A DNA stretch of 64,000 bases from sequence record SRR31156797_5325. One strand, given 5' to 3'. Position numbers and translations under genes: made by a program. Positions within the stretch are counted from its first letter, which is position 1; every line of letters begins with the position of its first letter. Positions 1,320-37,111 of the stretch are shown one piece after another. The notes under the pieces are model-generated. The model saw only the letters and a program-made list of their open reading frames with translations, did not search any database and was not told the DNA's origin.

Positions 1320-1832
1320 CTATTTTTCAGATTCGGTTTCTGACCCACTAACAAGATCCAGCTCTGATAGGAGCTGGTCGCGAGACTGTTCAGAATTAAT
1401 CAAGTCTTGCAGACGATCGCGAAACGCTGGGATATTTCCTAATGGGCCTTTCAATGCAACTAAGGCTTCTCGAAGTTCAATCAGTTTTTGTAATTCAGGA
1501 ACCTGAGTAACGATAGCGTCGGGTGAAAAATCTTCTAATGATTTAAACGAAAGTTCTACTGGTAGTTCAGCGCTATCGTCATCATCGGTTAACTTGTTTG
1601 CTACAGTTGCAGATAACTTCAATTCGCTTTCACGCATGACCGATTGAAAATTATTCTTATCAACAGAGACTGTACTTCTTTCCTCGATAGGAGAATCTTC
1701 CGCATGCCCTTTGAAATCACCGATAACTAGAGTTTTTAAAGGTAATTCGACTTCTGCTTGAGAATCACCAGTTGCGGGGATGTATTTAATATTAATGCGC
1801 TCTTTAGGAGCGACACTTCCTTCCTTTGCCAT
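1320..1832 (-). CDS. tssB: T6SS contractile sheath small subunit (VipA/TssB)
   Basis: MAKEGSVAPKERINIKY...ELPLKTLVIGDF...FSPDAIVTQVPEL is the VipA signature. Confidence 0.96.
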   Translation of the reverse strand: MAKEGSVAPKERINIKYIPATGDSQAEVELPLKTLVIGDFKGHAEDSPIEERSTVSVDKNNFQSVMRESELKLSATVANKLTDDDDSAELPVELSFKSLEDFSPDAIVTQVPELQKLIELREALVALKGPLGNIPAFRDRLQDLINSEQSRDQLLSELDLVSGSETESEK

Positions 1833-2063
1833 AAAGAATCACCAAGCCTATAAATTATTATTGATTTCAGGTAACTAATATCAATAATTGGTATTAGTTA
1901 TAATTTGAAAACTTTCCTATTAGATGTACTAATTAAATTAGATGTGGACTGACCAAACGAGCAACTTACAAATATAAGGTTGCATCAAGTCAGCTTAAAA
2001 ATGGTAACAATTAAATAATAAAATTTTAATTAACTCTCAAAAATACATTCGTAAATAATACGT

Positions 2064-3071
2064 TTAAAACTCCCAATACAAATCATAGTTATAAAAACTA
2101 GTTTCTTTTAATTTCTTCTCTAGTAATAAAGATTTAGATATTTGCTCCTCCGTCATAGTACTAACGACGTAGAAATAACTATCTTCAACTTTTTTATATA
2201 AAGAAGAGAATTGATTATTGCCAGCACTTTCTAAATATAGACTTAAATAAGCTTTGGCTAAAATATCATCTTCAATGACGAAATTATAATCACTGATTGT
2301 TAATCCCGAATAAATTAATCCCAAAGAAGCTAAAGAAGTAATGTCACCTTGTTGCAACGCTTTGTTTCTCCACTCAAACGCAGATTCAAACTTTCCTTGA
2401 CCTTCTAGTATCTGTATATACTTTCTAATTGCTGGTATGTATCCAAGCTCAGCAGCCTTTAAGTATTCCATTCTCACTGAAGTTTCTCGCTCGCCGGGAA
2501 CATAATAACTGCCGCTACCTTCTGCTAATGCTTCGGCCTGCTCCATGTACGCTGGGGCATAATCCATTTGCATAGCCTTACCTAAGTAATACTTAGAAAG
2601 GTCTGGCTCCATAGTCTCAAAGTACTTAGCTAACTCATAAAATGCAGTGTCAGGCTCTTCCTTACCTAAGGTAATCACCGCGTTATAGTATTTAACTCGC
2701 CACTGCTTTTTTTGATTCGCTGTTAACCAATCACCTGACTCATACAAATGTTTCATTGCATGTCTATTCCCATCATGAGCCGCTTGTAAAACTAACTGAC
2801 GACTATCTTCAATAGTCCGCAAGCTGCGATTAGAGTTGATTATGACGATGGAATATAAATAGGCTGCATCACTGTTCCCCTCATGAGAGGAGTAACGTAA
2901 ATATTGCAAAGACTCTCTATTTTTGAATTGTGCTCTCAACAACTTTCCCTTTTGATATGCCTCTTCGGCACTCAAGTTTTTAAGGTCGTAGCTATCATCA
3001 GCACTATAAGAATGATGAGAAATAACGATGAGGAGCAATGAAATAGCTCTCAACTTAGCCAACATTGACAC
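2064..3071 (-). CDS. Exported Sel1-like/TPR repeat protein, possibly a T6SS immunity or accessory protein
   Basis: N-terminal signal peptide; repeated A-x-x-G...A helical motifs (YLKAAELGYIPA, KALQQGDITSLASLG); AT-rich; overlaps the PAAR stop by 17 nt. Confidence 0.7.
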   Translation of the reverse strand: MSMLAKLRAISLLLIVISHHSYSADDSYDLKNLSAEEAYQKGKLLRAQFKNRESLQYLRYSSHEGNSDAAYLYSIVIINSNRSLRTIEDSRQLVLQAAHDGNRHAMKHLYESGDWLTANQKKQWRVKYYNAVITLGKEEPDTAFYELAKYFETMEPDLSKYYLGKAMQMDYAPAYMEQAEALAEGSGSYYVPGERETSVRMEYLKAAELGYIPAIRKYIQILEGQGKFESAFEWRNKALQQGDITSLASLGLIYSGLTISDYNFVIEDDILAKAYLSLYLESAGNNQFSSLYKKVEDSYFYVVSTMTEEQISKSLLLEKKLKETSFYNYDLYWEF

Positions 3072-3339
3072 TGCTTGCTCCTACTAAAACACCACCACAA
3101 TCCACCGCATCTCCAGAGCGAGCGGCAGGTTTACCATCAATCATTACCGTCGATGAACCACCAGCGATACTTCTGGGATGGGGTGGATGTTTAGGTTTAC
3201 TGTGAGCGGCTAATGCGTCACCTTGACGCGCTGAGGGGCTCCCATCAACCAAAACCGTTGATGAGCCAGAAATGACAGCGGTAGGAGGAAAACCATCATG
3301 GTCGGTTCCAATATCGCCAACGACTATTGCTTTAGCCAC
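3055..3339 (-). CDS. T6SS PAAR spike-tip protein (94 aa)
   Basis: PSAR and PAAR motifs; His/Cys Zn-ligand-type residues (DHDG, HPPH, DCG). Start moved to GTG 3339, which has an AGGGA RBS. Confidence 0.93.
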   Translation of the reverse strand: MAKAIVVGDIGTDHDGFPPTAVISGSSTVLVDGSPSARQGDALAAHSKPKHPPHPRSIAGGSSTVMIDGKPAARSGDAVDCGGVLVGASSVNVG

Positions 3340-3378
3340 AATCACTATCCCTAAGTAAATTAAACGTGACCATGGGAT

Positions 3379-3396
3379 AAGCAAATAGCATTCCTA
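3379..3396 (-). promoter_or_regulatory. Putative sigma54 (-24/-12) promoter of the PAAR/T6SS operon
   Basis: Minus strand reads TAGGAATGCTATTTGCTT, i.e. GG-N10-GC with TTGC at -12, about 40 bp upstream of the PAAR start. Confidence 0.6.
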
Positions 3397-9312: not shown

Positions 9313-10047
9313 TTACCTCTCTGGTGGTAATGCTCTAGCTGCCTGTACAACATGTAAACTGATTTTTTGCTGATGAGATTCAACTCGATGAGCCGGAGCC
9401 ATCACCGTTATTGCGCCAATCAATTTACTTCCTTTCATCACCGGAGCACTGATCCCAGATACGCCTGAATCGATTTCAGAGGTGCTCACGGCATAACCTC
9501 GTTGGCGAATATTTTCCAGCTCAAGCTGCCACTTTTCCAACTGTTCTTGTTGACCAAAGTAACGAAGTATTTTTTCGCAACGTTGAGCTGGCATAAATGC
9601 CAACATCGCTTTAGATGAGGCGCCTCGAAGCAGGGGTTGACTTTGACCCTGGACGTAGCTGCATCGCAGCGCCTGCATACTTTCTTTCTGGCTCACGCAC
9701 AAAGCTCGATATCCGACCGGAACCATGTACGCTGCCATTTCACCCGTTTGTTTTTGTAACCGAGTGAGGACGGCATCGACCTCATCAAGGTTATGTTGAC
9801 TAGTCTCATAGCTGTGCATCAGAAGCAAAGCTGCAGGACCGATGATAAGAGTCTTGTCGTAGGAGCTCTCTTCAATCAGACTCCACTCTTTCAGCAGTTT
9901 TAAATGACGATACAAACTACTTAATGGCACCTGAAGCTGTTCACTCAACGTTTTTGCCGAAACGGGGTCACTATTCACCGCTACTTGCATCAGAAGTTGC
10001 AATGACTTCTCATTCACTTGATTTGTAGGCAGTTTTATTTCTTTCAT
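9313..10047 (-). CDS. IclR-family transcriptional regulator
   Basis: N-terminal HTH (LSEQLQVPLSSLYRHL); C-terminal IRQRGYAVS...GISAPV effector domain. Start set at ATG 10047. Confidence 0.9.
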   Translation of the reverse strand: MKEIKLPTNQVNEKSLQLLMQVAVNSDPVSAKTLSEQLQVPLSSLYRHLKLLKEWSLIEESSYDKTLIIGPAALLLMHSYETSQHNLDEVDAVLTRLQKQTGEMAAYMVPVGYRALCVSQKESMQALRCSYVQGQSQPLLRGASSKAMLAFMPAQRCEKILRYFGQQEQLEKWQLELENIRQRGYAVSTSEIDSGVSGISAPVMKGSKLIGAITVMAPAHRVESHQQKISLHVVQAARALPPER

Positions 10048-10090
10048 AACGGATGTTTTAGCCTTTATTGATACGCCACTCAAACGCAGT

Positions 10091-10148
10091 TTCTTATATA
10101 ACGAGAATTTAATATAAATAGAAGCATTACATTCTCACAGAATGAGAA
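10091..10148. promoter_or_regulatory. Two putative IclR operators (TTCTCA-N5-TGAGAA)
   Basis: TTCTTATATAACGAGAA (10091-10107) and the perfect dyad TTCTCACAGAATGAGAA (10132-10148), both just upstream of the iclR-family gene. Confidence 0.65.
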
Positions 10149-10344
10149 AAGCATCCAACAAAGTACCAAGACGAATGAAATGACTTTGACAAGAAAATCA
10201 CAAACTCACTGAAGTTATGGGTAACATCTTAAAAATAACTCAAAGAAATGCATCGCAGTTATAAGATGTAGGTACCGAGAAGCTTGCTTTTTGTGATATA
10301 TGTCGGCAACCTCTACCGACAGTTGGCATTAAAGGATAAAACCC

Positions 10345-10965
10345 ATGAATTTAATCAAACCCTTATCGTTCGCTTTAGCCGTTATTTTCAGCGCCTCTGC
10401 CGCTGCTAAAGTGACGGTAGAAGTACCGAATACCGTTGATCTTCTGGTCGTCAATGGTGAAAAGCCACAAACCTCTGGCAGTCTGTTTTCTTCAAGTGAT
10501 ACCCTAGAGCTGGAAGATGGGGAAAACCAAATCGTGTTTCGCTTTGAACCGTTTTTCACTCAAGGCGATGATCGCGTAGGTGTTTCAAGTGATGTGGTAA
10601 TTGCAAAGTTCACGACCCAAGACAAAGAACTGATGTTCTCCCTACCTGAGTATCGAGATGCAAAATCTGCCCAGAAAGATATAAAGAATTTCGAATGGTC
10701 ATTAATCGATAACAACCAACAAGCTGTTGAGATTAAACAAGATCGTTTAACCAAAAGTGGCATGCAGCTTGGACGAAATTACGCCCAAGAAACGCTGGAA
10801 TACAATCGCTCTGGTGCAATTGCGTCAGTCGCAGTAGCAGGATCATCAATGCAAATGCCTACCAATGCCAACAGTGACACGGCAGAAGAGATGTTGCACT
10901 TCTGGTACAACAAAGCCGATAAGCAAACTCAACAACGTTTCAAACAGTTCATTAACGCTCAGTAA
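10345..10965 (+). CDS. DUF2057 (YccT-like) periplasmic protein
   Basis: Signal peptide; DLLVVNG..., GENQIVFRF, EEMLHFWYNKAD C-terminus. Confidence 0.85.
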   Translation: MNLIKPLSFALAVIFSASAAAKVTVEVPNTVDLLVVNGEKPQTSGSLFSSSDTLELEDGENQIVFRFEPFFTQGDDRVGVSSDVVIAKFTTQDKELMFSLPEYRDAKSAQKDIKNFEWSLIDNNQQAVEIKQDRLTKSGMQLGRNYAQETLEYNRSGAIASVAVAGSSMQMPTNANSDTAEEMLHFWYNKADKQTQQRFKQFINAQ

Positions 10966-12229
10966 CCCACTGATATGAGCTCTCTGCAATCGAGAGCTCA
11001 TAACACTCTTTAGCATTTTGTAGCACCACATCAAACACATCGTTATCCATCCGCCCGCAGCTCACTTCATGGGTCATAATGTTCATCACTTCTTCTAAAG
11101 ACATTCGTCCGCGATAAGGGCGAGCTTGAGTTAACGCCTGGAATACATCTGCGACAGCAATAATTCTTGAAGGCAAATCCAGTTCGTTGGCATGTAAGCC
11201 ACGTGGATAACCAGAACCGTCTAATCGTTCATGGTGATTACTCGCCCATTCGCAAATGGTAGAATCACCAAACATCATTCTTAACGTATAAAGTGAATCC
11301 GTTGAATGGCGCTGAATACATAAGTACTCACTTTCACTCAACTTACCTGGCTTATGTAAAATATCTTCAGGGGTATGAAGTTTTCCGATGTCATGGACTA
11401 AACCGGTCAAATAGAGTGCTTTTTGTAGTTCTCTATCCAAACCCAGTTTCTCTGCTAAGTAGTGACATAGCTCTGCCACTTTCTGTGAGTGAGAAAACGT
11501 AAAGGTACTTTTGGCGTCAACGATATTTGCCATCAACATCGCAATAGCAAATACGTCATTGATATCTTGTGACTGCTCAAAAAAAGGGACAGAAGGGAAA
11601 AGATTACCAATTGATTCAACATGATGAGCTTCCATCGAGAACCAAAGAAACTCCTGACTCAATAGGTGTTGCATCTCACGAACAAAATCTGGCTCGAACA
11701 GGGTTCCGCTCAAACGACCAATTTCCAGACAGACTTCATTTCTCGCCTCTTTGGTCACATTACCGAACTGATCTTTTTCATAAAGTTCTTTGAGGTAATC
11801 CACCCTATCTGTAAGAAAAACCATCGCTGCAAAACGTTTGGCTTGGTCAGAAATTTGAATAGATTTCAGCTCTTCCCATGGCGTATGGTGATACAAAATG
11901 GCATCGGCAAAAATTGAGAACGGCGGGCACTGAGAGAGAAGTTGGTGACCACGAATGCAATGTTGTCGAACATTTTCAGGTTGCATTGCATCCAGCAGGT
12001 TATAAAAATCTCGTTTTTGAGCAACACCGCAATCGTGTATCAAACCAAAAGCGAAGACAAGCTGACACTCCTCTTCACTCCACTCCATAGATCGGGCGCA
12101 AGAGTGCGCCATATACGCCACACGATGGCCATGATTGATATCATCAATACCAATCGAGTCAAGAGCACGAGCAATACAAAAAAAAGTTTGACGAATATTA
12201 ACCCGCCATTCGAGCTTCACTGGTTTCAT
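10952..12229 (-). CDS. Double HD-GYP cyclic dinucleotide phosphodiesterase, V-cGAP1 (VCA0681)-like
   Basis: Degenerate N-terminal HD domain (IHDCG) plus intact VHDIGK...HHERLDGSGYP; sequence closely resembles V. cholerae VCA0681 as I recall it. Confidence 0.88.
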   Translation of the reverse strand: MKPVKLEWRVNIRQTFFCIARALDSIGIDDINHGHRVAYMAHSCARSMEWSEEECQLVFAFGLIHDCGVAQKRDFYNLLDAMQPENVRQHCIRGHQLLSQCPPFSIFADAILYHHTPWEELKSIQISDQAKRFAAMVFLTDRVDYLKELYEKDQFGNVTKEARNEVCLEIGRLSGTLFEPDFVREMQHLLSQEFLWFSMEAHHVESIGNLFPSVPFFEQSQDINDVFAIAMLMANIVDAKSTFTFSHSQKVAELCHYLAEKLGLDRELQKALYLTGLVHDIGKLHTPEDILHKPGKLSESEYLCIQRHSTDSLYTLRMMFGDSTICEWASNHHERLDGSGYPRGLHANELDLPSRIIAVADVFQALTQARPYRGRMSLEEVMNIMTHEVSCGRMDNDVFDVVLQNAKECYELSIAESSYQWVTER

Positions 12230-12293
12230 AGGCTAACCCTGTCGATATGCCATACTATTAATGTAGTAGCACATCTAAACATTGCTAAACTAT

Positions 12294-13598
12294 CTAGTGA
12301 TAGTTTTCACCAACTGTTAGCCCCTGCACAAGTTGAGCATTATCCGAGTCGTCATCGGTAGACAGCTTGTAACAGTAATGCGCATTTCGCTCCAAACAGC
12401 CAAAAATCTCTCTATCAAGCTGGTTCCTGTCCACCAAACCACGAACAATTTCTAGAGCCTGATATAGCGGAACTCCAGGACGATAAGGACGCGACTGCGT
12501 TAGTGCTTGAAATACATCTGAAACCGCGATAATCCTGCTTGGTCTGTCCAATTGATATGCAAGCTTTCCTAACGGATAGCCCGAGCCATCTAAGCGCTCA
12601 TGGTGATTTGAAGCCCACTCCAACACCCGCTGTGAACAAAAAATGTTCTGCAATACAAAACGAGTATCTGTCGCATGCCGTTTTATACAGTTGTACTCTT
12701 CATCCGTTAGTTTACCGGGCTTATGCAGTATCGAATCCGGCGTGTGCAGTTTGCCTATATCATGAATAAGCCCTGCTAAATACAGCATCTTTTGCATTTT
12801 GGGTGAGTAGCCCAAATCTCTAGCGATAAATTTCGCGAGCTGTGCAACTTTCAATGAATGTTGAAAAGTGAACGAGCTTTTCGCATCGACAATCTTGGCA
12901 AAGAACTCCGCCACCGCAATCGTACCATCAAGCCCGATACGACCAGAGAAAAACGGTACTGGCTGCATATCAAAATACATTTGCTCGATGTATTTCGGCT
13001 TCATTGCAAACCAAAAATCGTCTCGGCTCACAAGCTGAGTTAAGTTTTCCACCATGTTAGGCTCAAAAACAGTTCCAGCCTGACTTTTCAGCTCTTCGCA
13101 AATTTTTTGCTTACTTTCAGGGAACAGGTTACCAAATGCATCCTTTCGGCCCTTTCTCATCAAATGGTCAAATCGATTTGCTAAAAAAATCATTGCTGAC
13201 AACTGCTTATCAGTTTCAGAAATATCCATGTCTTTCAGCTCTTGCCACATTGTATGATGGTAAAGAACCGGTGTTGCGAAACAGGATAATGGCGGACACT
13301 CTTTCAGTAAGGTGTAACCTTTTTCACAGTGGCGAGAGAAACTGCCAGTTAAACATTGAGGGAAAAGCGGTAGTAGATTCCGTGACTGAGCTCCGCCACA
13401 GTCATGAAGAAGACCAATTGAAAAACCGAGCTGAGCTTGCTCCTCATCCCACCCCATAAACACAGCACAACGATAAGCGATATAAGCCACGTGATAGCCG
13501 TGATAGGGTGCTTCCAGTTCGACTGCATCAATCGCTTGAGCAATCCCCAGTAGTGCTTGACGCAAGTTGACTCTCGCATCTGCATTTGTTGCTTCCAT
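12294..13598 (-). CDS. Double HD-GYP phosphodiesterase, paralog of the adjacent gene
   Basis: Same architecture: LHDCG, IHDIGK, HHERLDGSGYP, RPYR. Confidence 0.88.
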   Translation of the reverse strand: MEATNADARVNLRQALLGIAQAIDAVELEAPYHGYHVAYIAYRCAVFMGWDEEQAQLGFSIGLLHDCGGAQSRNLLPLFPQCLTGSFSRHCEKGYTLLKECPPLSCFATPVLYHHTMWQELKDMDISETDKQLSAMIFLANRFDHLMRKGRKDAFGNLFPESKQKICEELKSQAGTVFEPNMVENLTQLVSRDDFWFAMKPKYIEQMYFDMQPVPFFSGRIGLDGTIAVAEFFAKIVDAKSSFTFQHSLKVAQLAKFIARDLGYSPKMQKMLYLAGLIHDIGKLHTPDSILHKPGKLTDEEYNCIKRHATDTRFVLQNIFCSQRVLEWASNHHERLDGSGYPLGKLAYQLDRPSRIIAVSDVFQALTQSRPYRPGVPLYQALEIVRGLVDRNQLDREIFGCLERNAHYCYKLSTDDDSDNAQLVQGLTVGENYH

Positions 13599-31909: not shown

Positions 31910-33130
31910 ATGCAAAGCAACAATCTTTTTGCCCGTTTCGCGCGTGGCAATCTGGTGTTACAAATCCTCGTTGGTATCGTATTAGGTGCCATCGTAGCGA
32001 CTGTATCTCCAGATTTAGCACACAAAGTTTCACTATTAGGTAGCCTGTTTGTTGGAGCACTAAAAGCCGTTGCTCCAATCTTGGTCTTCATTTTGGTTGC
32101 AGCGTCTATCGCAAACCAAAAGAAAAACCAACACACATACATGCGCCCAATCGTCGTGTTGTACCTTGTTGGTACACTAACGGCTGCACTAACCGCTGTC
32201 GTTCTTAGCTTCCTTTTCCCAACCACTCTAACGCTAGTTGCGGGTGCGGAAGGTGCAACTCCTCCACAAGGTATTGCGGAAGTTTTAAACACGCTACTAT
32301 TTAAGCTGGTTGATAACCCAGTAAACGCACTAATGAGCGCAAACTACATCGGCATTCTTGCTTGGGGTGTAGGTTTAGGTTTGGCACTACACCACGCTTC
32401 AGCAACAACCAAAGCGGTGTTTGAAGATCTTAGCCACGGCGTATCTCAAATCGTTCGCTTCATCATTCGTTTAGCACCTTTTGGTATCTTCGGTCTTGTT
32501 GCTTCAACGTTCGCAACCACAGGTTTCAGTGCTCTAGCGGGCTACGCTCAGCTTCTTGCGGTACTGCTAGGTGCAATGGCAATCATCGCGCTAGTGGTTA
32601 ACCCAATCATTGTGTACGTGAAAACCGGCGAAAACCCATACCCGCTGGTTCTTCAATGTTTACGTGAAAGTGGTGTAACAGCATTCTTTACCCGTTCAAG
32701 TGCTGCAAACATCCCAGTAAACATGGCGCTATGTGAAAAGCTAGATCTCGATGAAGATACCTACTCTGTATCTATCCCACTAGGTGCGACAATCAACATG
32801 GCTGGTGCGGCTATCACTATCACAGTACTAACGCTTGCTGCCGTTCATACTATGGGTATTGAAGTTGACCTACTTACAGCGGTACTGCTAAGCGTTGTAG
32901 CTGCAGTTTCAGCGTGTGGTGCTTCAGGCGTTGCAGGTGGTTCACTGCTACTTATCCCACTAGCGTGTGGCCTGTTTGGTATCTCTAACGACGTAGCAAT
33001 GCAGGTTGTCGCAGTCGGCTTCATCATCGGTGTAATTCAAGACTCGGCTGAAACAGCATTAAACAGCTCAACTGACGTTGTATTCACAGCAGCAGTATGC
33101 CGCTCAGAACACAAAAAAGCTCAAGGTTAA
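31910..33130 (+). CDS. sstT: Serine/threonine:Na+ symporter
   Basis: [38 protein letters not shown]. Confidence 0.95.
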
Positions 33131-33151
33131 TTCCTTAAGCTCGAATGTGAT

Positions 33152-33175
33152 AAAACCCGCCGATTGGCGGGTTTT
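33152..33175 (+). terminator. sstT terminator
   Basis: AAAACCCGCC-GATT-GGCGGGTTTT. Confidence 0.85.
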
Positions 33176-33496
33176 CTTATACTGACCTTCTTACTTCTAG
33201 CACAAGTCAACTAACTCACTCAACAAGCGCCTATAGGCTGGCTTTTCTAACCAATCCTTACTGTGAACTGTGGCCAAAAAGGTGTTTTCTATGCTGAACC
33301 GCTTCAAAGTTAGTGTTGAACTTTCGACGATAACGTTTATCGTGCACACCTTGTGGGCGGACATCTGCCAGTCACTTCTAACCTTTTTTATAACCAAATA
33401 ACAACTTTTAACCGTTACTAGCACCCACATACTCGATAACGCGCGGCTGTATATAAATGCAAATCAAAGAAGGTGGTTTAGGGTAGAAAATTGACT

Positions 33497-35335
33497 CTAA
33501 ATCGATTTCGAAATTAAGTCAGCTTTCAACAGCCCACCTTTCGTAAGTAACTTAGCCGTAAACTTCGGATTTTTTCTCTGCTTATAAGCGGTGAATATTT
33601 TCTGCAACCCTTCAGCCTCTAATAATGAGATATTAATGTCCGTGTCCATATCTGCAGCGTCGATGAAATCTTCTGAAAATGAAGGGGCAATGATTAGAAC
33701 CTGAGCTACTCGATGTCCATCGACTTCACAACGTTTTACATAAGACTTAACTTGTCTCGAGGTGGAAGAATACTTCGCATAATGACCATTTTTATATGAC
33801 TTAGCTTCACCAATAATTACGTCATTATTTTCTAGGGAAATGATAATGTCAGCTTTATCTTTTGCCGTATTAATCCCTTTCCTTAAGTCCTCATCTACGT
33901 TTAAACCTATTTGTTCTAATATCGAACGAGTGACTTCTTCAAATTTAACACCTAAATCCGCTTCTTTGATATCAATGCCAGCTGCACATAGAGATTGGAG
34001 ATCTCGGGTTGCTAAATGGTGATAATTTTCTATGTAGCGGTCATTTGCACTAGCGAAGCTCTCTATTATTTGGCTACGGGGGTTTCCTCGCTTCGGTAAG
34101 CCCAAATCATTTCGGATTTGTTTGATTTCGTCATTCGTATATAAATAAAGAATATCAGTAGGAGTGATATTTAAAGCCTTTAGACGCTCAGGATCTAAGG
34201 TTTCTTTATTCTCTATTTCAAAATCTTTCCTAATGAGCTCTTCAACGTTGGAAGAGCTAGTTGTCAATGATTCCAAAAGTTCTTTATAACCGCTAACACT
34301 TAAAGCATTAAACTCTTGTTCTTCAGACTGTTTCAAAGCTTCAATTAATACATCAATACGTTCTTGTAACTTCGAACCAATTCGTTGTATGTCTAGCCCT
34401 AGTTCTTCAATTAATAGTTTAATTCTATCCTTTCTCTGGTTTTGCGTAGCGTCAGAATTATGAATGTCGTTTTCCAGAATGCTTCGAATAGATATACCAG
34501 TATGAGCAATTGTTGATATCTTATCCTGACGTTCAACACCTCTGATCTTATGCCCATGATTTTTTAGGATATTTGATAGTTCAGCATCTGTTAACGTGCG
34601 AAGAATTCGAAGAATGTATTTATCATTCAAGTCTTTACCTTGGATTTCGTGGATAATATCGACCACTTCATCTGCGACCATCACTTCAGAGCGACGACGA
34701 TTAACCAAAATTACCCCGCTTTCTCTTAGATATTCTAAAGCAGTTTCGATACCCAATTCGTCAATGGGATTCACTGTATGATCAATTGCATTTATTTCTT
34801 CTCTAGATAGACCTAAGCGATCAGCAACAAGATTCAAGATACTTCGTTCATCATCTGTTATTTTGGCTTCACGATTATACTTAACGTCATTATTAAACGC
34901 CGTACTCATACACTGTTTATATATTTCAAGTCGGTGCAGCCGATTATAATCGTACTCTTCGTTTTCATTGATTTCACTTGCTAGCTGTTTGCTCAACTTA
35001 TTGATTAGCTTGTATTCCTTTGAGTACAAACTCTCAATCCAAGGAACGCTTGCTATACAGTTACCATCACGAGAAAGGATATTTACTAGAAGAGATACTT
35101 GTGGGCCACCAATAGCAATTTGTTCTTTTACATACTGCTTGTAGTAATCTTTTATAACAGCAAACAATTGAGTAATTTCGTTACCAGAAGCCGCTTTCAA
35201 TTGACCATCAATTTTGTCCAATTGCTTAACCAAACTAATGTCGTCTTTATGACTTTGACAAAGCCTATCGATACAGTTTACGAACTTGGACCGTTCGACT
35301 TGGTTTGTATGGGTTAATACTTGGCTCAACTTCAT
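33497..35335 (-). CDS. 612-aa protein with TerB-like, SAP-like and C-terminal PD-(D/E)xK nuclease-like regions; candidate defence protein
   Basis: KITDDERSILNLVADRLGLS (TerB-like); FEE...KADIII...IGEAKS (restriction-endonuclease fold); AT-rich; AAGGA RBS before ATG 35335. Confidence 0.7.
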   Translation of the reverse strand: MKLSQVLTHTNQVERSKFVNCIDRLCQSHKDDISLVKQLDKIDGQLKAASGNEITQLFAVIKDYYKQYVKEQIAIGGPQVSLLVNILSRDGNCIASVPWIESLYSKEYKLINKLSKQLASEINENEEYDYNRLHRLEIYKQCMSTAFNNDVKYNREAKITDDERSILNLVADRLGLSREEINAIDHTVNPIDELGIETALEYLRESGVILVNRRRSEVMVADEVVDIIHEIQGKDLNDKYILRILRTLTDAELSNILKNHGHKIRGVERQDKISTIAHTGISIRSILENDIHNSDATQNQRKDRIKLLIEELGLDIQRIGSKLQERIDVLIEALKQSEEQEFNALSVSGYKELLESLTTSSSNVEELIRKDFEIENKETLDPERLKALNITPTDILYLYTNDEIKQIRNDLGLPKRGNPRSQIIESFASANDRYIENYHHLATRDLQSLCAAGIDIKEADLGVKFEEVTRSILEQIGLNVDEDLRKGINTAKDKADIIISLENNDVIIGEAKSYKNGHYAKYSSTSRQVKSYVKRCEVDGHRVAQVLIIAPSFSEDFIDAADMDTDINISLLEAEGLQKIFTAYKQRKNPKFTAKLLTKGGLLKADLISKSI

Positions 35336-35500
35336 AAGATTTCCTTTTCTAATTGATGCTTTAATAAACAATATAACGAAATCTTATAAATAAGGGATAA
35401 GTTGAATAGAAATACGTTAAGTATGTCACTTGTCTAATATAAGCTTTTGAGCCACACACGTCTGAAATAAAAAAAGATTAGCTCTGTAGACATAGTTAAT

Positions 35501-35532
35501 AAAAAAAGCCACCCAATCTCTTGGGTGGCTTT
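35501..35532 (-). terminator. Intrinsic terminator after the S24 relic
   Basis: AAAAAAAGCCACCCAA-TCTC-TTGGGTGGCTTT. Confidence 0.8.
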
Positions 35533-35534
35533 CC

Positions 35535-35757
35535 CTACATAATATTCTTAAATAATGGCACTAGTGCCTTTCCTATTATTTTGAAATTACATCCATTGGT
35601 GTGGTCAATTTCAAACGTGCCATATTCTGGATTATCCGGAACTATCTGGTACACACCTTTAGTATGTCCCACTTCAGTCGTTTTACGTAAACCGCTTCAT
35701 CGATACGGATAACATAAACGCCGTTGGCTACTGGGTGCTGTCGTTTCGGATACTAAT
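35535..35757 (-). pseudogene. Frameshifted C-terminal fragment of a phage CI/LexA-like (peptidase S24) repressor
   Basis: My translation: PKRQHPVANGVYVIRIDEAVYVKRLKWDIL / frameshift near 35660 / KGVYQIVPDNPEYGTFEIDHTNGCNFKIIGKALVPLFKNIM*. No start codon and no HTH. Confidence 0.8.
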
Positions 35758-35809
35758 GCAAAAAATTACACGGGTTTTACGTAATTTTTAACATTCAATT
35801 TTTGCCGCT

Positions 35810-36568
35810 TTACTCTTTATTCAACATAATTTCTTTTAGATCAGCAATTTCAGATTTAAGTTCTGCAACTTCATTCTTTAAGTTTGTTACGACGTGCTGT
35901 TCCTTTTTATCTTGGTCATCTTCCAAAAACCACGATGCAACAAAACCGGTGAATGTGCCAAACAACCCAACGCCTGCTGTCATCAATATCACAGCGACAA
36001 TACGTCCTTCATAAGTCACTGGATAATAATCGCCATACCCAACCGTTGTAATTGTAACGAAAGCCCACCAGAGCGCGTCAGGTGCATTGTGGATGTTTGA
36101 ACCTTCAACGCCTTTTTCAAGCAACAGCATCGCTATTGCGCCAAAAATAGCCAAGATGACCGAGACAGTAGAAACCAATGAAAAGGTTCCTTGGGTTTTG
36201 TTCCTGAACAGGTAATACAAAATAACTTTTGTTGAACGAAAAGCTCTGAGTATCCTTAAAACCCGAACCACACGAACAATTCTTCCATAGCGGAAAATGT
36301 CCAACATAGGAATGCTCGAAATAAAGTCAATCCAACCCCATTTCATAAACTGCTTTTTGCTAGGAGCTTTGCTAAACCTGACAAAAAAATCGAATAAAAA
36401 AACGAAGCATATTAAATGATCAGCAAATCGCAGTATCTCTTTTACATCCGGCGTTAACTCAAAAAGACTTTCAACAAAAAGCGCCACTAAAACGTATATA
36501 GACAGAATCAAGATGAAGAACTGAAAAGGTCCAATTTGTTCATTTGCTTCTGCTTTATTCCCTACCAT
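35810..36568 (-). CDS. Voltage-gated-type potassium channel (6TM, KvAP-like)
   Basis: TTVGYGD filter; S4 RYGRIVRVVRVLRILRAFR; C-terminal coiled coil. Confidence 0.93.
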   Translation of the reverse strand: MVGNKAEANEQIGPFQFFILILSIYVLVALFVESLFELTPDVKEILRFADHLICFVFLFDFFVRFSKAPSKKQFMKWGWIDFISSIPMLDIFRYGRIVRVVRVLRILRAFRSTKVILYYLFRNKTQGTFSLVSTVSVILAIFGAIAMLLLEKGVEGSNIHNAPDALWWAFVTITTVGYGDYYPVTYEGRIVAVILMTAGVGLFGTFTGFVASWFLEDDQDKKEQHVVTNLKNEVAELKSEIADLKEIMLNKE

Positions 36569-36583
36569 ATAAACCTTCCATAC

Positions 36584-36616
36584 AAAAACGCCACCTAATT
36601 CTATGGTGGCGTTTTT
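36584..36616 (-). terminator. Terminator of the M23-bactofilin operon
   Basis: AAAAACGCCACC...GGTGGCGTTTTT. Confidence 0.8.
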
Positions 36617-36637
36617 ACTTAATCTAAAAAACAGAAA

Positions 36638-37111
36638 CTACTTCTTGGCAGCAACTTTCGCGTTCTGAGTTTGTTTCTCTTGAGCTTTCGCTTCCTGAAC
36701 CTTAGCTTCTTGAACTTCCGCTAGCTCAACGACCGACTTGTCGGTTGCTTTATTGTCAGCTTGATATGGGTAAGTCACGCCGTTAAAGCGACCACCTTGC
36801 TCAATGCTTAAGTCGTCACTATAAATAGTGCCGTTAACTTTACCGTTGCTTAGTATCTCTATTTTCGCAGCGTGGCAGGTGCCTTCAAACTCACCGTTAA
36901 TCACTAAGTGTTCAGCAAAAATGTCGCCGGTTGCTTGGCCACTCTCACTGATAACCAGTGTTTTATTAACGTGGATTTCTCCCTCAACCGAGCCATCCAC
37001 CTGCATGTTGCTTTCTACCCTGAGCTGTCCGCTGATAGTGCAACCTTTTGCGATGAGAGTTGTAGCTGAGTGCTGACTCTTAGCTCGACTTTTTGTACTA
37101 AAGATTCCCAT
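36638..37111 (-). CDS. Bactofilin (CcmA-like polymer-forming cytoskeletal protein)
   Basis: TLIAKGCTISG...VDGSVEG...GKVNGTI...IEQGGRFNG beta-helix repeats. Confidence 0.92.
   Translation of the reverse strand: MGIFSTKSRAKSQHSATTLIAKGCTISGQLRVESNMQVDGSVEGEIHVNKTLVISESGQATGDIFAEHLVINGEFEGTCHAAKIEILSNGKVNGTIYSDDLSIEQGGRFNGVTYPYQADNKATDKSVVELAEVQEAKVQEAKAQEKQTQNAKVAAKK

Follow-up and report, generated by a model that had tools for sequence, protein, structure and literature searches.

The 64,000-nt stretch of sequence record SRR31156797_5325 that was analysed here (the window; coordinates are positions in it unless a locus is named) carries on its minus strand a gene for a protein of 612 residues, referred to below as the target. 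With a probability of roughly 0.55, the target is a stand-alone restriction-type nuclease, which as a single gene defends against invading DNA, of phages or of other origin. This reading draws on a C-terminal domain that is predicted to adopt the fold of the FokI cleavage domain and that keeps its catalytic residues invariant, on N-terminal parts that probably bind DNA, on an accessory distribution, and on an excess of defence genes among the neighbours of its homologues.

The target gene

The open frame spans 33497-35371 on the minus strand and would encode 624 residues from a TTG start, or 612 from the ATG at 35335. The latter is the likely start, because an AAGGAA ribosome-binding site lies five bases before it and because M1-K2-L3 are invariant across an alignment of 24 homologues. 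The preliminary description of this locus, made from the letters alone, had pointed to an AT-rich reading frame with a set of short motifs. The frame has a GC content of 0.367, against 0.443 in the 10 kb on either side, and all the strings are where they should be: KITDDERS at residue 158, LTDAELSN at 248, YTNDEIKQ at 399, KFEEVTRS at 464, KADIII at 494 and IGEAKS at 508. A scan for promoters and terminators gave nothing exceeding shuffled expectation. The gene and the parts of its product are as follows.

33497..35335, minus strand: target gene, 612 codons plus stop, read from the ATG at 35335
34871..35335, minus strand: N-terminal helical bundle, residues 1-155 (AlphaFold models; pLDDT, the predicted local distance difference test, mostly 80-94 in this block)
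34628..34870, minus strand: conserved helix pair (with the 'TerB-like' motif, 158-180) and helix/β-hairpin/helix of a likely winged helix, residues 156-236 (model, VIA-align)
33971..34627, minus strand: helical region with three helix-loop-helix repeats, residues 237-455 (hhalign, alignment)
34475-34606, 34319-34432 and 34034-34153, minus strand: the three repeats, residues 244-287, 302-339 and 395-434, respectively (hhalign)
33500..33970, minus strand: predicted FokI-type PD-(D/E)xK cleavage domain, residues 456-612 (VIA-align, Foldseek, invariant catalytic residues)
33848-33850, 33806-33808 and 33800-33802, minus strand: codons of the putative catalytic residues D496, E510 and K512, respectively (invariant residues)

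Pfam was scanned with the window protein at E≤1, with 24 close members of its family at E≤0.1 and with 21 divergent members at E≤0.05. The window protein has no meaningful match in Pfam, PADLOC or NCBIfam. In particular, it matches none of the 5,027 models of PADLOC-DB 2.0 at E≤1, in keeping with the earlier remark that the architecture was not recognised as that of a named system. Sequence searches of the PDB with the protein or its profile returned nothing under E 0.27, and the viral structures in BFVD gave no match at E≤0.001. No description of the family was found in the literature searched, which did not extend to supplementary lists of candidate systems.

The C-terminal nuclease domain

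For the full-length protein, AlphaFold gave a model with a mean pLDDT of 85.9 and a predicted template modelling score (pTM) of 0.69. When it was compared with the PDB by Foldseek, all seven matches at E≤0.001 were chains of FokI (three) or Nt.BspD6I (four); the E value given for the FokI-type match is 2.3e-5. VIA-align was run twice, as a second look and then as an independent search of 48,161 representatives. It places residues ~430-612 on the FokI cleavage domain with Z 14.0-14.3 (root-mean-square deviation, rmsd, 3.0; 152 residues aligned), on N.BspD6I with Z 13.2-13.7 and on the small subunit of R.BspD6I with Z 12.5 (153 of 186 residues aligned). The next families follow at some distance, namely AF1548 (Z 9.8) and HindIII (Z 9.4). 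By its modelled fold, the target nuclease is thus a member of the FokI cleavage-domain group.

The putative catalytic triad is intact. Residues E466, E467, D493, D496, E510 and K512 are invariant in the 24-member alignment, and D496, E510 and K512 are at least 90% conserved in a set of 36 sequences that reaches down to 24% identity. At the level of sequence, the link to the FokI cleavage-domain family is marginal: PF09254 (Endonuc-FokI_C) is entered in a precomputed table for 14 among the 120 homologues listed, and our own scans for it gave no match in the window protein, the 24 close members or the 21 divergent ones. The preliminary description had assigned this C-terminus to the Mrr/restriction-endonuclease pattern. 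The PD-(D/E)xK pattern and fold have stood up; the affiliation has shifted, as the domain lies nearer to the cleavage domain of FokI than to Mrr. Mrr_cat (PF04471) is not found in the window protein, matches one of the 24 close members at E 0.0061, and matches five of the 21 divergent members, two of these five above Pfam's 21-bit cut-off.

The N-terminal two thirds

A separate model was made of residues 1-460 (pLDDT 87.6, pTM 0.82), and a Foldseek search with it gave nothing at E≤0.001. The model contains β-strands at 210-212 and 217-219. The best VIA-align matches of residues ~60-234 are all winged-helix domains, headed by that of Orc1/Cdc6 (Z 8.6, rmsd 2.4, 94 residues aligned), with ORC2, ArsR/SmtB, TubR and MarR types ranking lower. 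Parts of the bundle 1-155 align jointly with the winged helix to the corresponding helical-plus-winged-helix regions of Cdc6/ORC and STAND proteins (Z 7-8). A Z of 8.6 is middling, and values of this size fall in the range that the tool calls common; a winged-helix domain in this region is therefore likely, not certain. Weaker resemblances include the D3 winged helix of FokI (residues 62-233, Z 5.0, 80 aligned) and a region of the FAN1 nuclease aligned at 391-549 (residues 56-234, Z 6.6). ENT/EMSY-like matches over 125-207 reach Z 7.0-8.3 with an rmsd of 4.1-9.7, and Pfam's ENT profile was matched in one member with E 0.037; with deviations of that size the likeness was set aside as a mere lead.

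The segment that had been called TerB-like can be described only as a sequence pattern. TerB (PF05099) has no match in any of 46 sequences (the window protein, the 24 close and the 21 divergent members), profile-profile comparison finds residues 150-195 unrelated to the three repeats, and no TerB chain appears among the structural matches listed, a listing that by the tool's own statement does not exclude TerB. The label was accordingly dropped. Two residues of the segment, E163 and L167, stay invariant down to 24% identity. They belong to the most conserved N-terminal residues (G91, C142, N149, D150, E163 and L167), all of which are kept at that distance. Apart from G91, which lies further upstream, these cluster over C142-L167 (34838-34912), in and just before the 'TerB-like' helix, and may form an interface, a second active site or a ligand pocket.

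The preliminary description had also seen two or three SAP/HeH-like motifs. Three internal repeats of about 40 residues each do exist and are related to one another by profile-profile comparison. Within the family, hhalign pairs 244-287 with 395-434 at a probability of 69% (E 4.3e-5) and 401-432 with 302-339 at 68%. In the models, helices run over 250-259 and 269-279 and over 401-410 and 419-427, and G261, G266 and G417 are invariant or nearly so. The repeats thereby share a SAP-like pattern of two helices and a glycine-containing loop; this is a pattern, not homology. The SAP profile PF02037 matches neither the window protein nor any of the 24 close members, 21 divergent members or 28 separate repeat segments. 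When the PDB was searched with a profile built from residues 384-450, no SAP chain came up at E≤10, and a single-sequence match to 2rno reached only E 1.2. LEM was matched in one of the 24 close members (E 0.009) and in none of the other three sets. With four hidden Markov model scans and one PDB profile search negative, the SAP label was abandoned in favour of 'helix-loop-helix repeat'. The region is rich in conserved positive charge; ten basic residues are invariant in the 24-member alignment (K239, R243, R246, R265, R269, K302, R304, K306, R326 and R420).

Mean pairwise identity is 52-66% in the N-terminal parts and 76% in the nuclease. Such even conservation of the N-terminal parts favours, without being decisive, a constant ligand such as DNA, and the region is probably DNA-binding.

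Distribution and horizontal transfer

A word-indexed search, in which 8,000 candidates were scored, found 397 homologues at E≤1e-3. The 120 of these that were listed have 509-634 residues, nearly all of them 612-614, and share 55-94% identity. They come mostly from marine Gammaproteobacteria, including Vibrio, Photobacterium, Shewanella and Pseudoalteromonas. An exhaustive search of 1.84 billion representatives gave 194 clusters (50% identity) at the same threshold. Since full-length matches of ~600-620 residues persist in it down to ~27% identity, the family has a fixed architecture of about 612 residues. The same search returned one composite protein, P0159, a Calx-beta repeat protein of 1,379 residues whose last 117 residues are 68% identical to the C-terminus of the target; instead of being a genuine fusion, it may be a chimera that arose in gene calling or assembly.

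The target gene is accessory and horizontally acquired. Among 285 Vibrio genomes, no more than 18 give a match at E≤1e-20, comprising 14 uninterrupted copies and four that are broken or fragmentary. For comparison of genomic surroundings, 81 loci were assembled, from 80 genomes and the window. The gene is split or short in seven of them, and its GC content lies below that of its flanks in 72 of 80 loci, by 5.2 points on average. A FastTree phylogeny of the 74 intact copies, for which branch support is Shimodaira–Hasegawa-like only, mostly tracks genera, with exceptions that cross orders and classes. A copy from Kiloniella (Alphaproteobacteria) is nested in a Shewanella/Colwellia group, a Motilimonas copy is sister to a Vibrio copy, Pseudoalteromonas is split over three clades, and one Colwellia copy and one Pseudoalteromonas copy are nearly identical.

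The protein matches phrog_34709, a family of unknown function, over its full length, and the gene occurs on two of 2.9 million IMG/VR contigs, both predicted prophages. In one (L099, 1-21839), a reverse-oriented insert at 9980-12132 consists of the target gene and an unrelated open reading frame (ORF) of 75 residues. Within a module of terminase, portal, head and tail genes, it separates the head-protease gene from that of a neck protein, and the copy has a GC content of 37.8% against 51.1% for the remaining contig. Judging by this module, we take the prophage to be Mu-like. In the other (L100), the copy follows baseplate genes, 1.2 kb from the contig end. The only plasmid records with the gene are three Pseudoalteromonas replicons of 0.68-0.84 Mb.

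The islet in the window

In the window, the target gene resides with one other gene in a small islet within the otherwise ordinary chromosome of a marine Vibrio.

33181..36684: low-GC islet of 3,504 bp with the target and ion-channel genes, between sstT and a bactofilin gene (empty-site comparison)
35810..36568, minus strand: Ion_trans / Ion_trans_2 channel gene, 252 codons (Pfam; phrog_7872, E 1.9e-46)
35505-35532, between the channel and target genes: perfect 12-bp hairpin with a T-run, putative terminator of the channel gene

The closest Vibrio genome searched (G145), whose flanks are 91-94% identical in nucleotide sequence, has only 36 bp between those flanks; in four further genomes (G112, G098, G116 and G041) sstT likewise adjoins the bactofilin/M23 genes with no islet. 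The GC content of the islet is 0.373, against 0.443 in the flanks, and there is no integrase or transposase within it. At each end (33121-33260 and 36584-36740) a GC-rich hairpin is followed by a similar stretch of ~15 nt, of which the closest genome has a single copy at its empty site.

The channel gene is a separate transcription unit from the target gene. Ion_trans channels of 241-263 residues occur within two genes of the target in three of the 81 loci (the window, at 35810-36568 on the minus strand, L002:13614-14339 and L014:7580-8371), and are at most 26% identical to one another. The islet DNA outside the target matches no other locus, and the channel was rejected as a partner on these grounds. 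Small cation channels may be unrecognised cargo of defence islands or prophages.

Genomic neighbourhood

Neighbouring ORFs of at least 90 codons were called crudely and clustered across the 81 loci. The commonest cluster other than the target itself, a LysR regulator, is present in 11 loci, and no ORF of 35-160 codons is conserved upstream or downstream beyond near-identical genomes; the 77-codon ORF at 33197-33430 and the 75-codon ORF that follows the L099 copy are unrelated. No partner gene could thus be proposed from either size class, and the target is organised as a single-gene unit, as had been suggested. The same holds for the earlier observation that no methyltransferase accompanies it. 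No DNA methyltransferase family is represented among the 54 called ORFs of the window, and no N6 or N4 DNA methylase family among the neighbour representatives described next; only two of the 81 loci have DNA_methylase at a distance of up to two genes from the target, in one case as a fragment of 120 residues.

The neighbourhood was characterised by taking two called genes on each side, which gave 314 genes in 261 clusters; all 261 representatives were scanned against Pfam. A strict list of defence families comprised Abi_2, AIPR, nSTAND, KAP, GmrSD_N, HEPN, SIR2_2, HerA, OLD/AAA_15, AAA_13, AAA_21/SMC, PLD nucleases, NERD, putAbiC, T5orf172, DUF4145, DUF2726, DUF4011-helicase-MTES_1575 and C5 methylase; a liberal list added toxin-antitoxin and similar genes. 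By the strict list, 38 of the 314 neighbours, in 29 of the 81 loci, are defence genes, as opposed to one of 127 control genes taken from the same loci at distances of 7 kb or more (Fisher p 2.4e-5). By the liberal list, the counts are 70 of 314, in 42 loci, versus nine of 127 (p 1e-4). The size of this enrichment is rough, because the lists are hand-made and the near set was counted through representatives. Within these bounds, the homologues are accessory and biased towards defence islands, as the preliminary description would require of a defence gene.

Some neighbours recur. A giant gene with DUF4011, an AAA_11/AAA_12 helicase and an MTES_1575 nuclease (~1,800-1,950 residues) stands beside the target in five of the 81 loci (L016, L019, L041, L043 and L079; for example, L043:3567-9428), some of which also have NYN/OST-HTH, NERD or HipA_2/DUF3037 genes. 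In Pseudoalteromonas, a gene of ~1,050 codons with PLD, ResIII helicase and DUF3427 domains is adjacent in L021, L023 and L024 (for example, L024:13220-16429), and a protein of 320-512 residues with a C-terminal S24 peptidase domain is found beside the target in L010, L018, L021 and L024 (for example, L024:7962-9497). The recurrent Pseudoalteromonas neighbours point to a shared defence hotspot.

Proposed mode of action

In the reading that we favour, the helical N-terminal two thirds, consisting of the bundle, the winged helix and the three basic repeats, would bind DNA, and the C-terminal FokI-type domain would cut the bound DNA. By analogy with FokI, the cut would probably fall beside the bound site and need two paired cleavage domains; dimerisation of the cleavage domain is assumed on the same analogy. 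The host genome would be spared by the enzyme recognising a feature that is missing from host DNA. That host DNA should lack this feature is inferred from the missing protective methylase together with the uniformly conserved binding region: a lone cutter without a methylase has to avoid host DNA, for which the two main ways are to read a mark found on foreign DNA only or to stay inactive until a phage cue arrives. The feature recognised would most likely be a modified base in phage DNA, in the manner of type IV restriction, although this modification-dependent step, taken alone, is held more tentatively than the reading as a whole and at somewhat less than even odds.

The target would behave like a hybrid of type IIS and type IV enzymes. 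Mrr and the fusions of a winged helix to an endonuclease treated in PMC11037411 are likewise stand-alone, lack a cognate methylase and combine a winged helix (predicted in the target) with a PD-(D/E)xK domain. According to that source, stand-alone fusions of this kind act as type IV enzymes, and being stand-alone is argued to imply dependence on modification. Divergent members of the target family, moreover, match Mrr_cat, and some of the listed UniRef names read 'type IV Mrr domain'. The target differs from these enzymes in being much larger, in having a nuclease structurally nearer to FokI than to any listed Mrr-like chain, and in a winged helix whose listed matches include no reader of the DpnI type. 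Similar logic is embodied by the END nucleases (for example, END-PaCF1), which PMC12191111 describes as type IIS-like enzymes that have no methylase and restrict phages with hypermodified DNA. Like the target, they are products of single genes found in defence islands and possess a helical sensor region (putative in the target). As described there, they rely on a PLD nuclease together with an endonuclease III domain that is inactivated, whereas the target has a PD-(D/E)xK nuclease and no endonuclease III or helix-hairpin-helix match was seen in it. A language-model comparison added a cluster of 591-residue proteins in the ESM Atlas (feature score 0.90, 174 shared features; a lead without an alignment), 98% of which carry FokI_cleav_dom and 88% SAP. 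This resembles the architecture proposed in the preliminary description and differs from the target family, which has no SAP profile match in any of the sets scanned.

This picture is complicated by a number of points that speak against it. The copy in the window sits amid housekeeping genes, outside any defence island, and 52 of the 81 loci have no strict-list defence gene within two genes; sorting the neighbours into classes was done manually on the basis of Pfam names, via cluster representatives and crude ORFs. None of 50,697 GenBank phage records holds the gene, and PADLOC has no model for it. Idiomarina, Marinomonas and Rheinheimera form genus-level clades with partly conserved positions, which look more stably inherited than many defence genes. 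As to the reader, the winged-helix scores are middling, and no SRA/PUA/EVE or DpnI-type reader is among the structural matches listed, in searches that hardly covered 238-455. Finally, of the 14 Vibrio genomes whose copy is intact, three also encode a C5 DNA methylase, as do 116 of the 271 others (p 0.16, not significant), so that the enzyme does not exclude cytosine-5 methylation as such.

Alternative readings

Among the alternatives, an abortive-infection nuclease survives best, as a minority possibility. Here the N-terminal region would sense a phage protein or other infection cue and free the FokI-type domain, leading to indiscriminate degradation of DNA and to arrest or death of the cell. 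The layout, a single chain in which a PD-(D/E)xK domain follows at the C-terminus on a large part that is not catalytic, is compatible with this; the missing methylase fits equally well, and the neighbours are often Abi-type or STAND genes (Abi_2, AIPR, putAbiC, nSTAND1/3, KAP). There is also a precedent in GAPS1, which according to 10.1101/2023.03.28.534373 is a single protein from a mobile island of Vibrio, with a C-terminal PD-(D/E)xK domain needed for defence, that stays inactive until it is triggered by a capsid protein and then causes dormancy. Its catalytic residues are given there as D313 and K328, compared with D496 and K512 in the target, and the two proteins thus differ in size and layout. 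What the N-terminal region looks like speaks against this reading. Protein sensors in defence usually vary fast, whereas these parts are uniformly conserved, and a winged helix with basic repeats resembles binders of nucleic acids. The EAD7 adaptor family, which would have suited a triggered effector, was matched weakly at repeat positions in two of the 21 divergent members (E 0.045 and 4.9e-4). Both matches are under the cut-off, none of the 28 repeat-3 segments responds even at E≤10, and the idea was given up. Restriction of modified or foreign DNA and abortive infection both fit the evidence, and the data do not decide between them.

Rather less probable is a nuclease that serves its mobile element, by superinfection exclusion, by degrading the DNA of the host or of rival elements, or through an addiction- or homing-like function. 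The reversed copy inside the morphogenesis module of the L099 prophage, the copy near the end of the L100 prophage, membership of a PHROGs family, phage GPA replication genes nearby in L002 and L039, the low GC content in 72 of 80 loci, and small insertions without an integrase, such as the 3.5-kb islet, can all be read in this way. However, the two IMG/VR contigs and the empty GenBank phage set imply that most copies reside outside recognisable phages, and the insertion sites vary between loci, unlike those of homing elements. Superinfection exclusion by a prophage is, moreover, in practice also defence of the host, and to that extent overlaps with restriction as favoured here.

A type IIS enzyme of the classical kind, restricting or nicking at a specific sequence, with the host protected by an unlinked methylase or by absent sites, is more improbable still. 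The best structural relatives of the target, FokI and Nt.BspD6I/R.BspD6I (1fok, 2fok, 2ewf and 2p14; Z 12.5-14.3 for the cleavage fold), share with it the D...ExK centre at the C-terminus, a single polypeptide of ~580-610 residues and a helical, DNA-binding N-terminal part with a winged helix, where DNA binding and winged helix are predictions in the target. The weak alignment with FokI D3 would also agree. The N-terminus is, however, not recognisably D1-D3, of which only D3 aligns, and has the three helix-loop-helix repeats instead; nor does the target match any PDB chain at the level of sequence. Lacking a methylase (one within two genes in only two loci), it does not qualify as a type IIS restriction-modification system. 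It also moves alone; a solitary enzyme that cut at a specific site would kill a new host as soon as it arrived. Type II specificities, besides, usually diversify, whereas the DNA-binding part of the target is conserved family-wide.

A housekeeping protein of DNA repair, recombination or the nucleoid is very improbable: the high conservation among the 120 homologues listed, the conserved positions of some genus-level clades and the weak resemblance to FAN1 would suit one, but its presence in so few Vibrio genomes with four copies broken, the closest genome lacking it where the locus is otherwise identical, the low GC content, the defence-biased neighbourhood and the carriage by prophages do not.

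Implications

A growing number of phage defences are stand-alone nucleases that distinguish self from foreign DNA with no help from a methylase, and in this class each new reader domain is another way of recognising phage DNA. The target family is compact, with one highly conserved gene of 1.8 kb that is widespread in marine Gammaproteobacteria, carried by prophages and absent from PADLOC. It would couple the cleavage domain of FokI, the best-understood modular one, to an unfamiliar binding module, and identifying the ligand of that module could yield a reagent. More speculatively, and with the odds clearly against it at present, the target may found a class of single-protein immunity that is as yet undescribed, in which a FokI-type module is steered by a new winged-helix and triple-repeat reader, not of a sequence but of a generic mark of phage DNA (hypermodified bases, or a structure formed in replication or packaging), and whose gene passes between marine bacteria on its own, as a cassette, and as a prophage moron. 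If so, and since the FokI module would cut next to anything that the reader attaches to, the reader could be reused as a sensor of modified DNA that can be programmed. Should the target instead be a trigger-activated suicide nuclease, it would add a FokI-type effector to that group.

Other features of the window

Elsewhere in the window, positions 1323-3384 hold type VI secretion genes, for VipA/TssB and a PAAR protein, with an unannotated ORF of 335 codons between them whose product could be an effector or adaptor. Two tandem paralogous genes with HD_5/HD domains (425 and 434 codons) occupy 10955-13598 on the minus strand.

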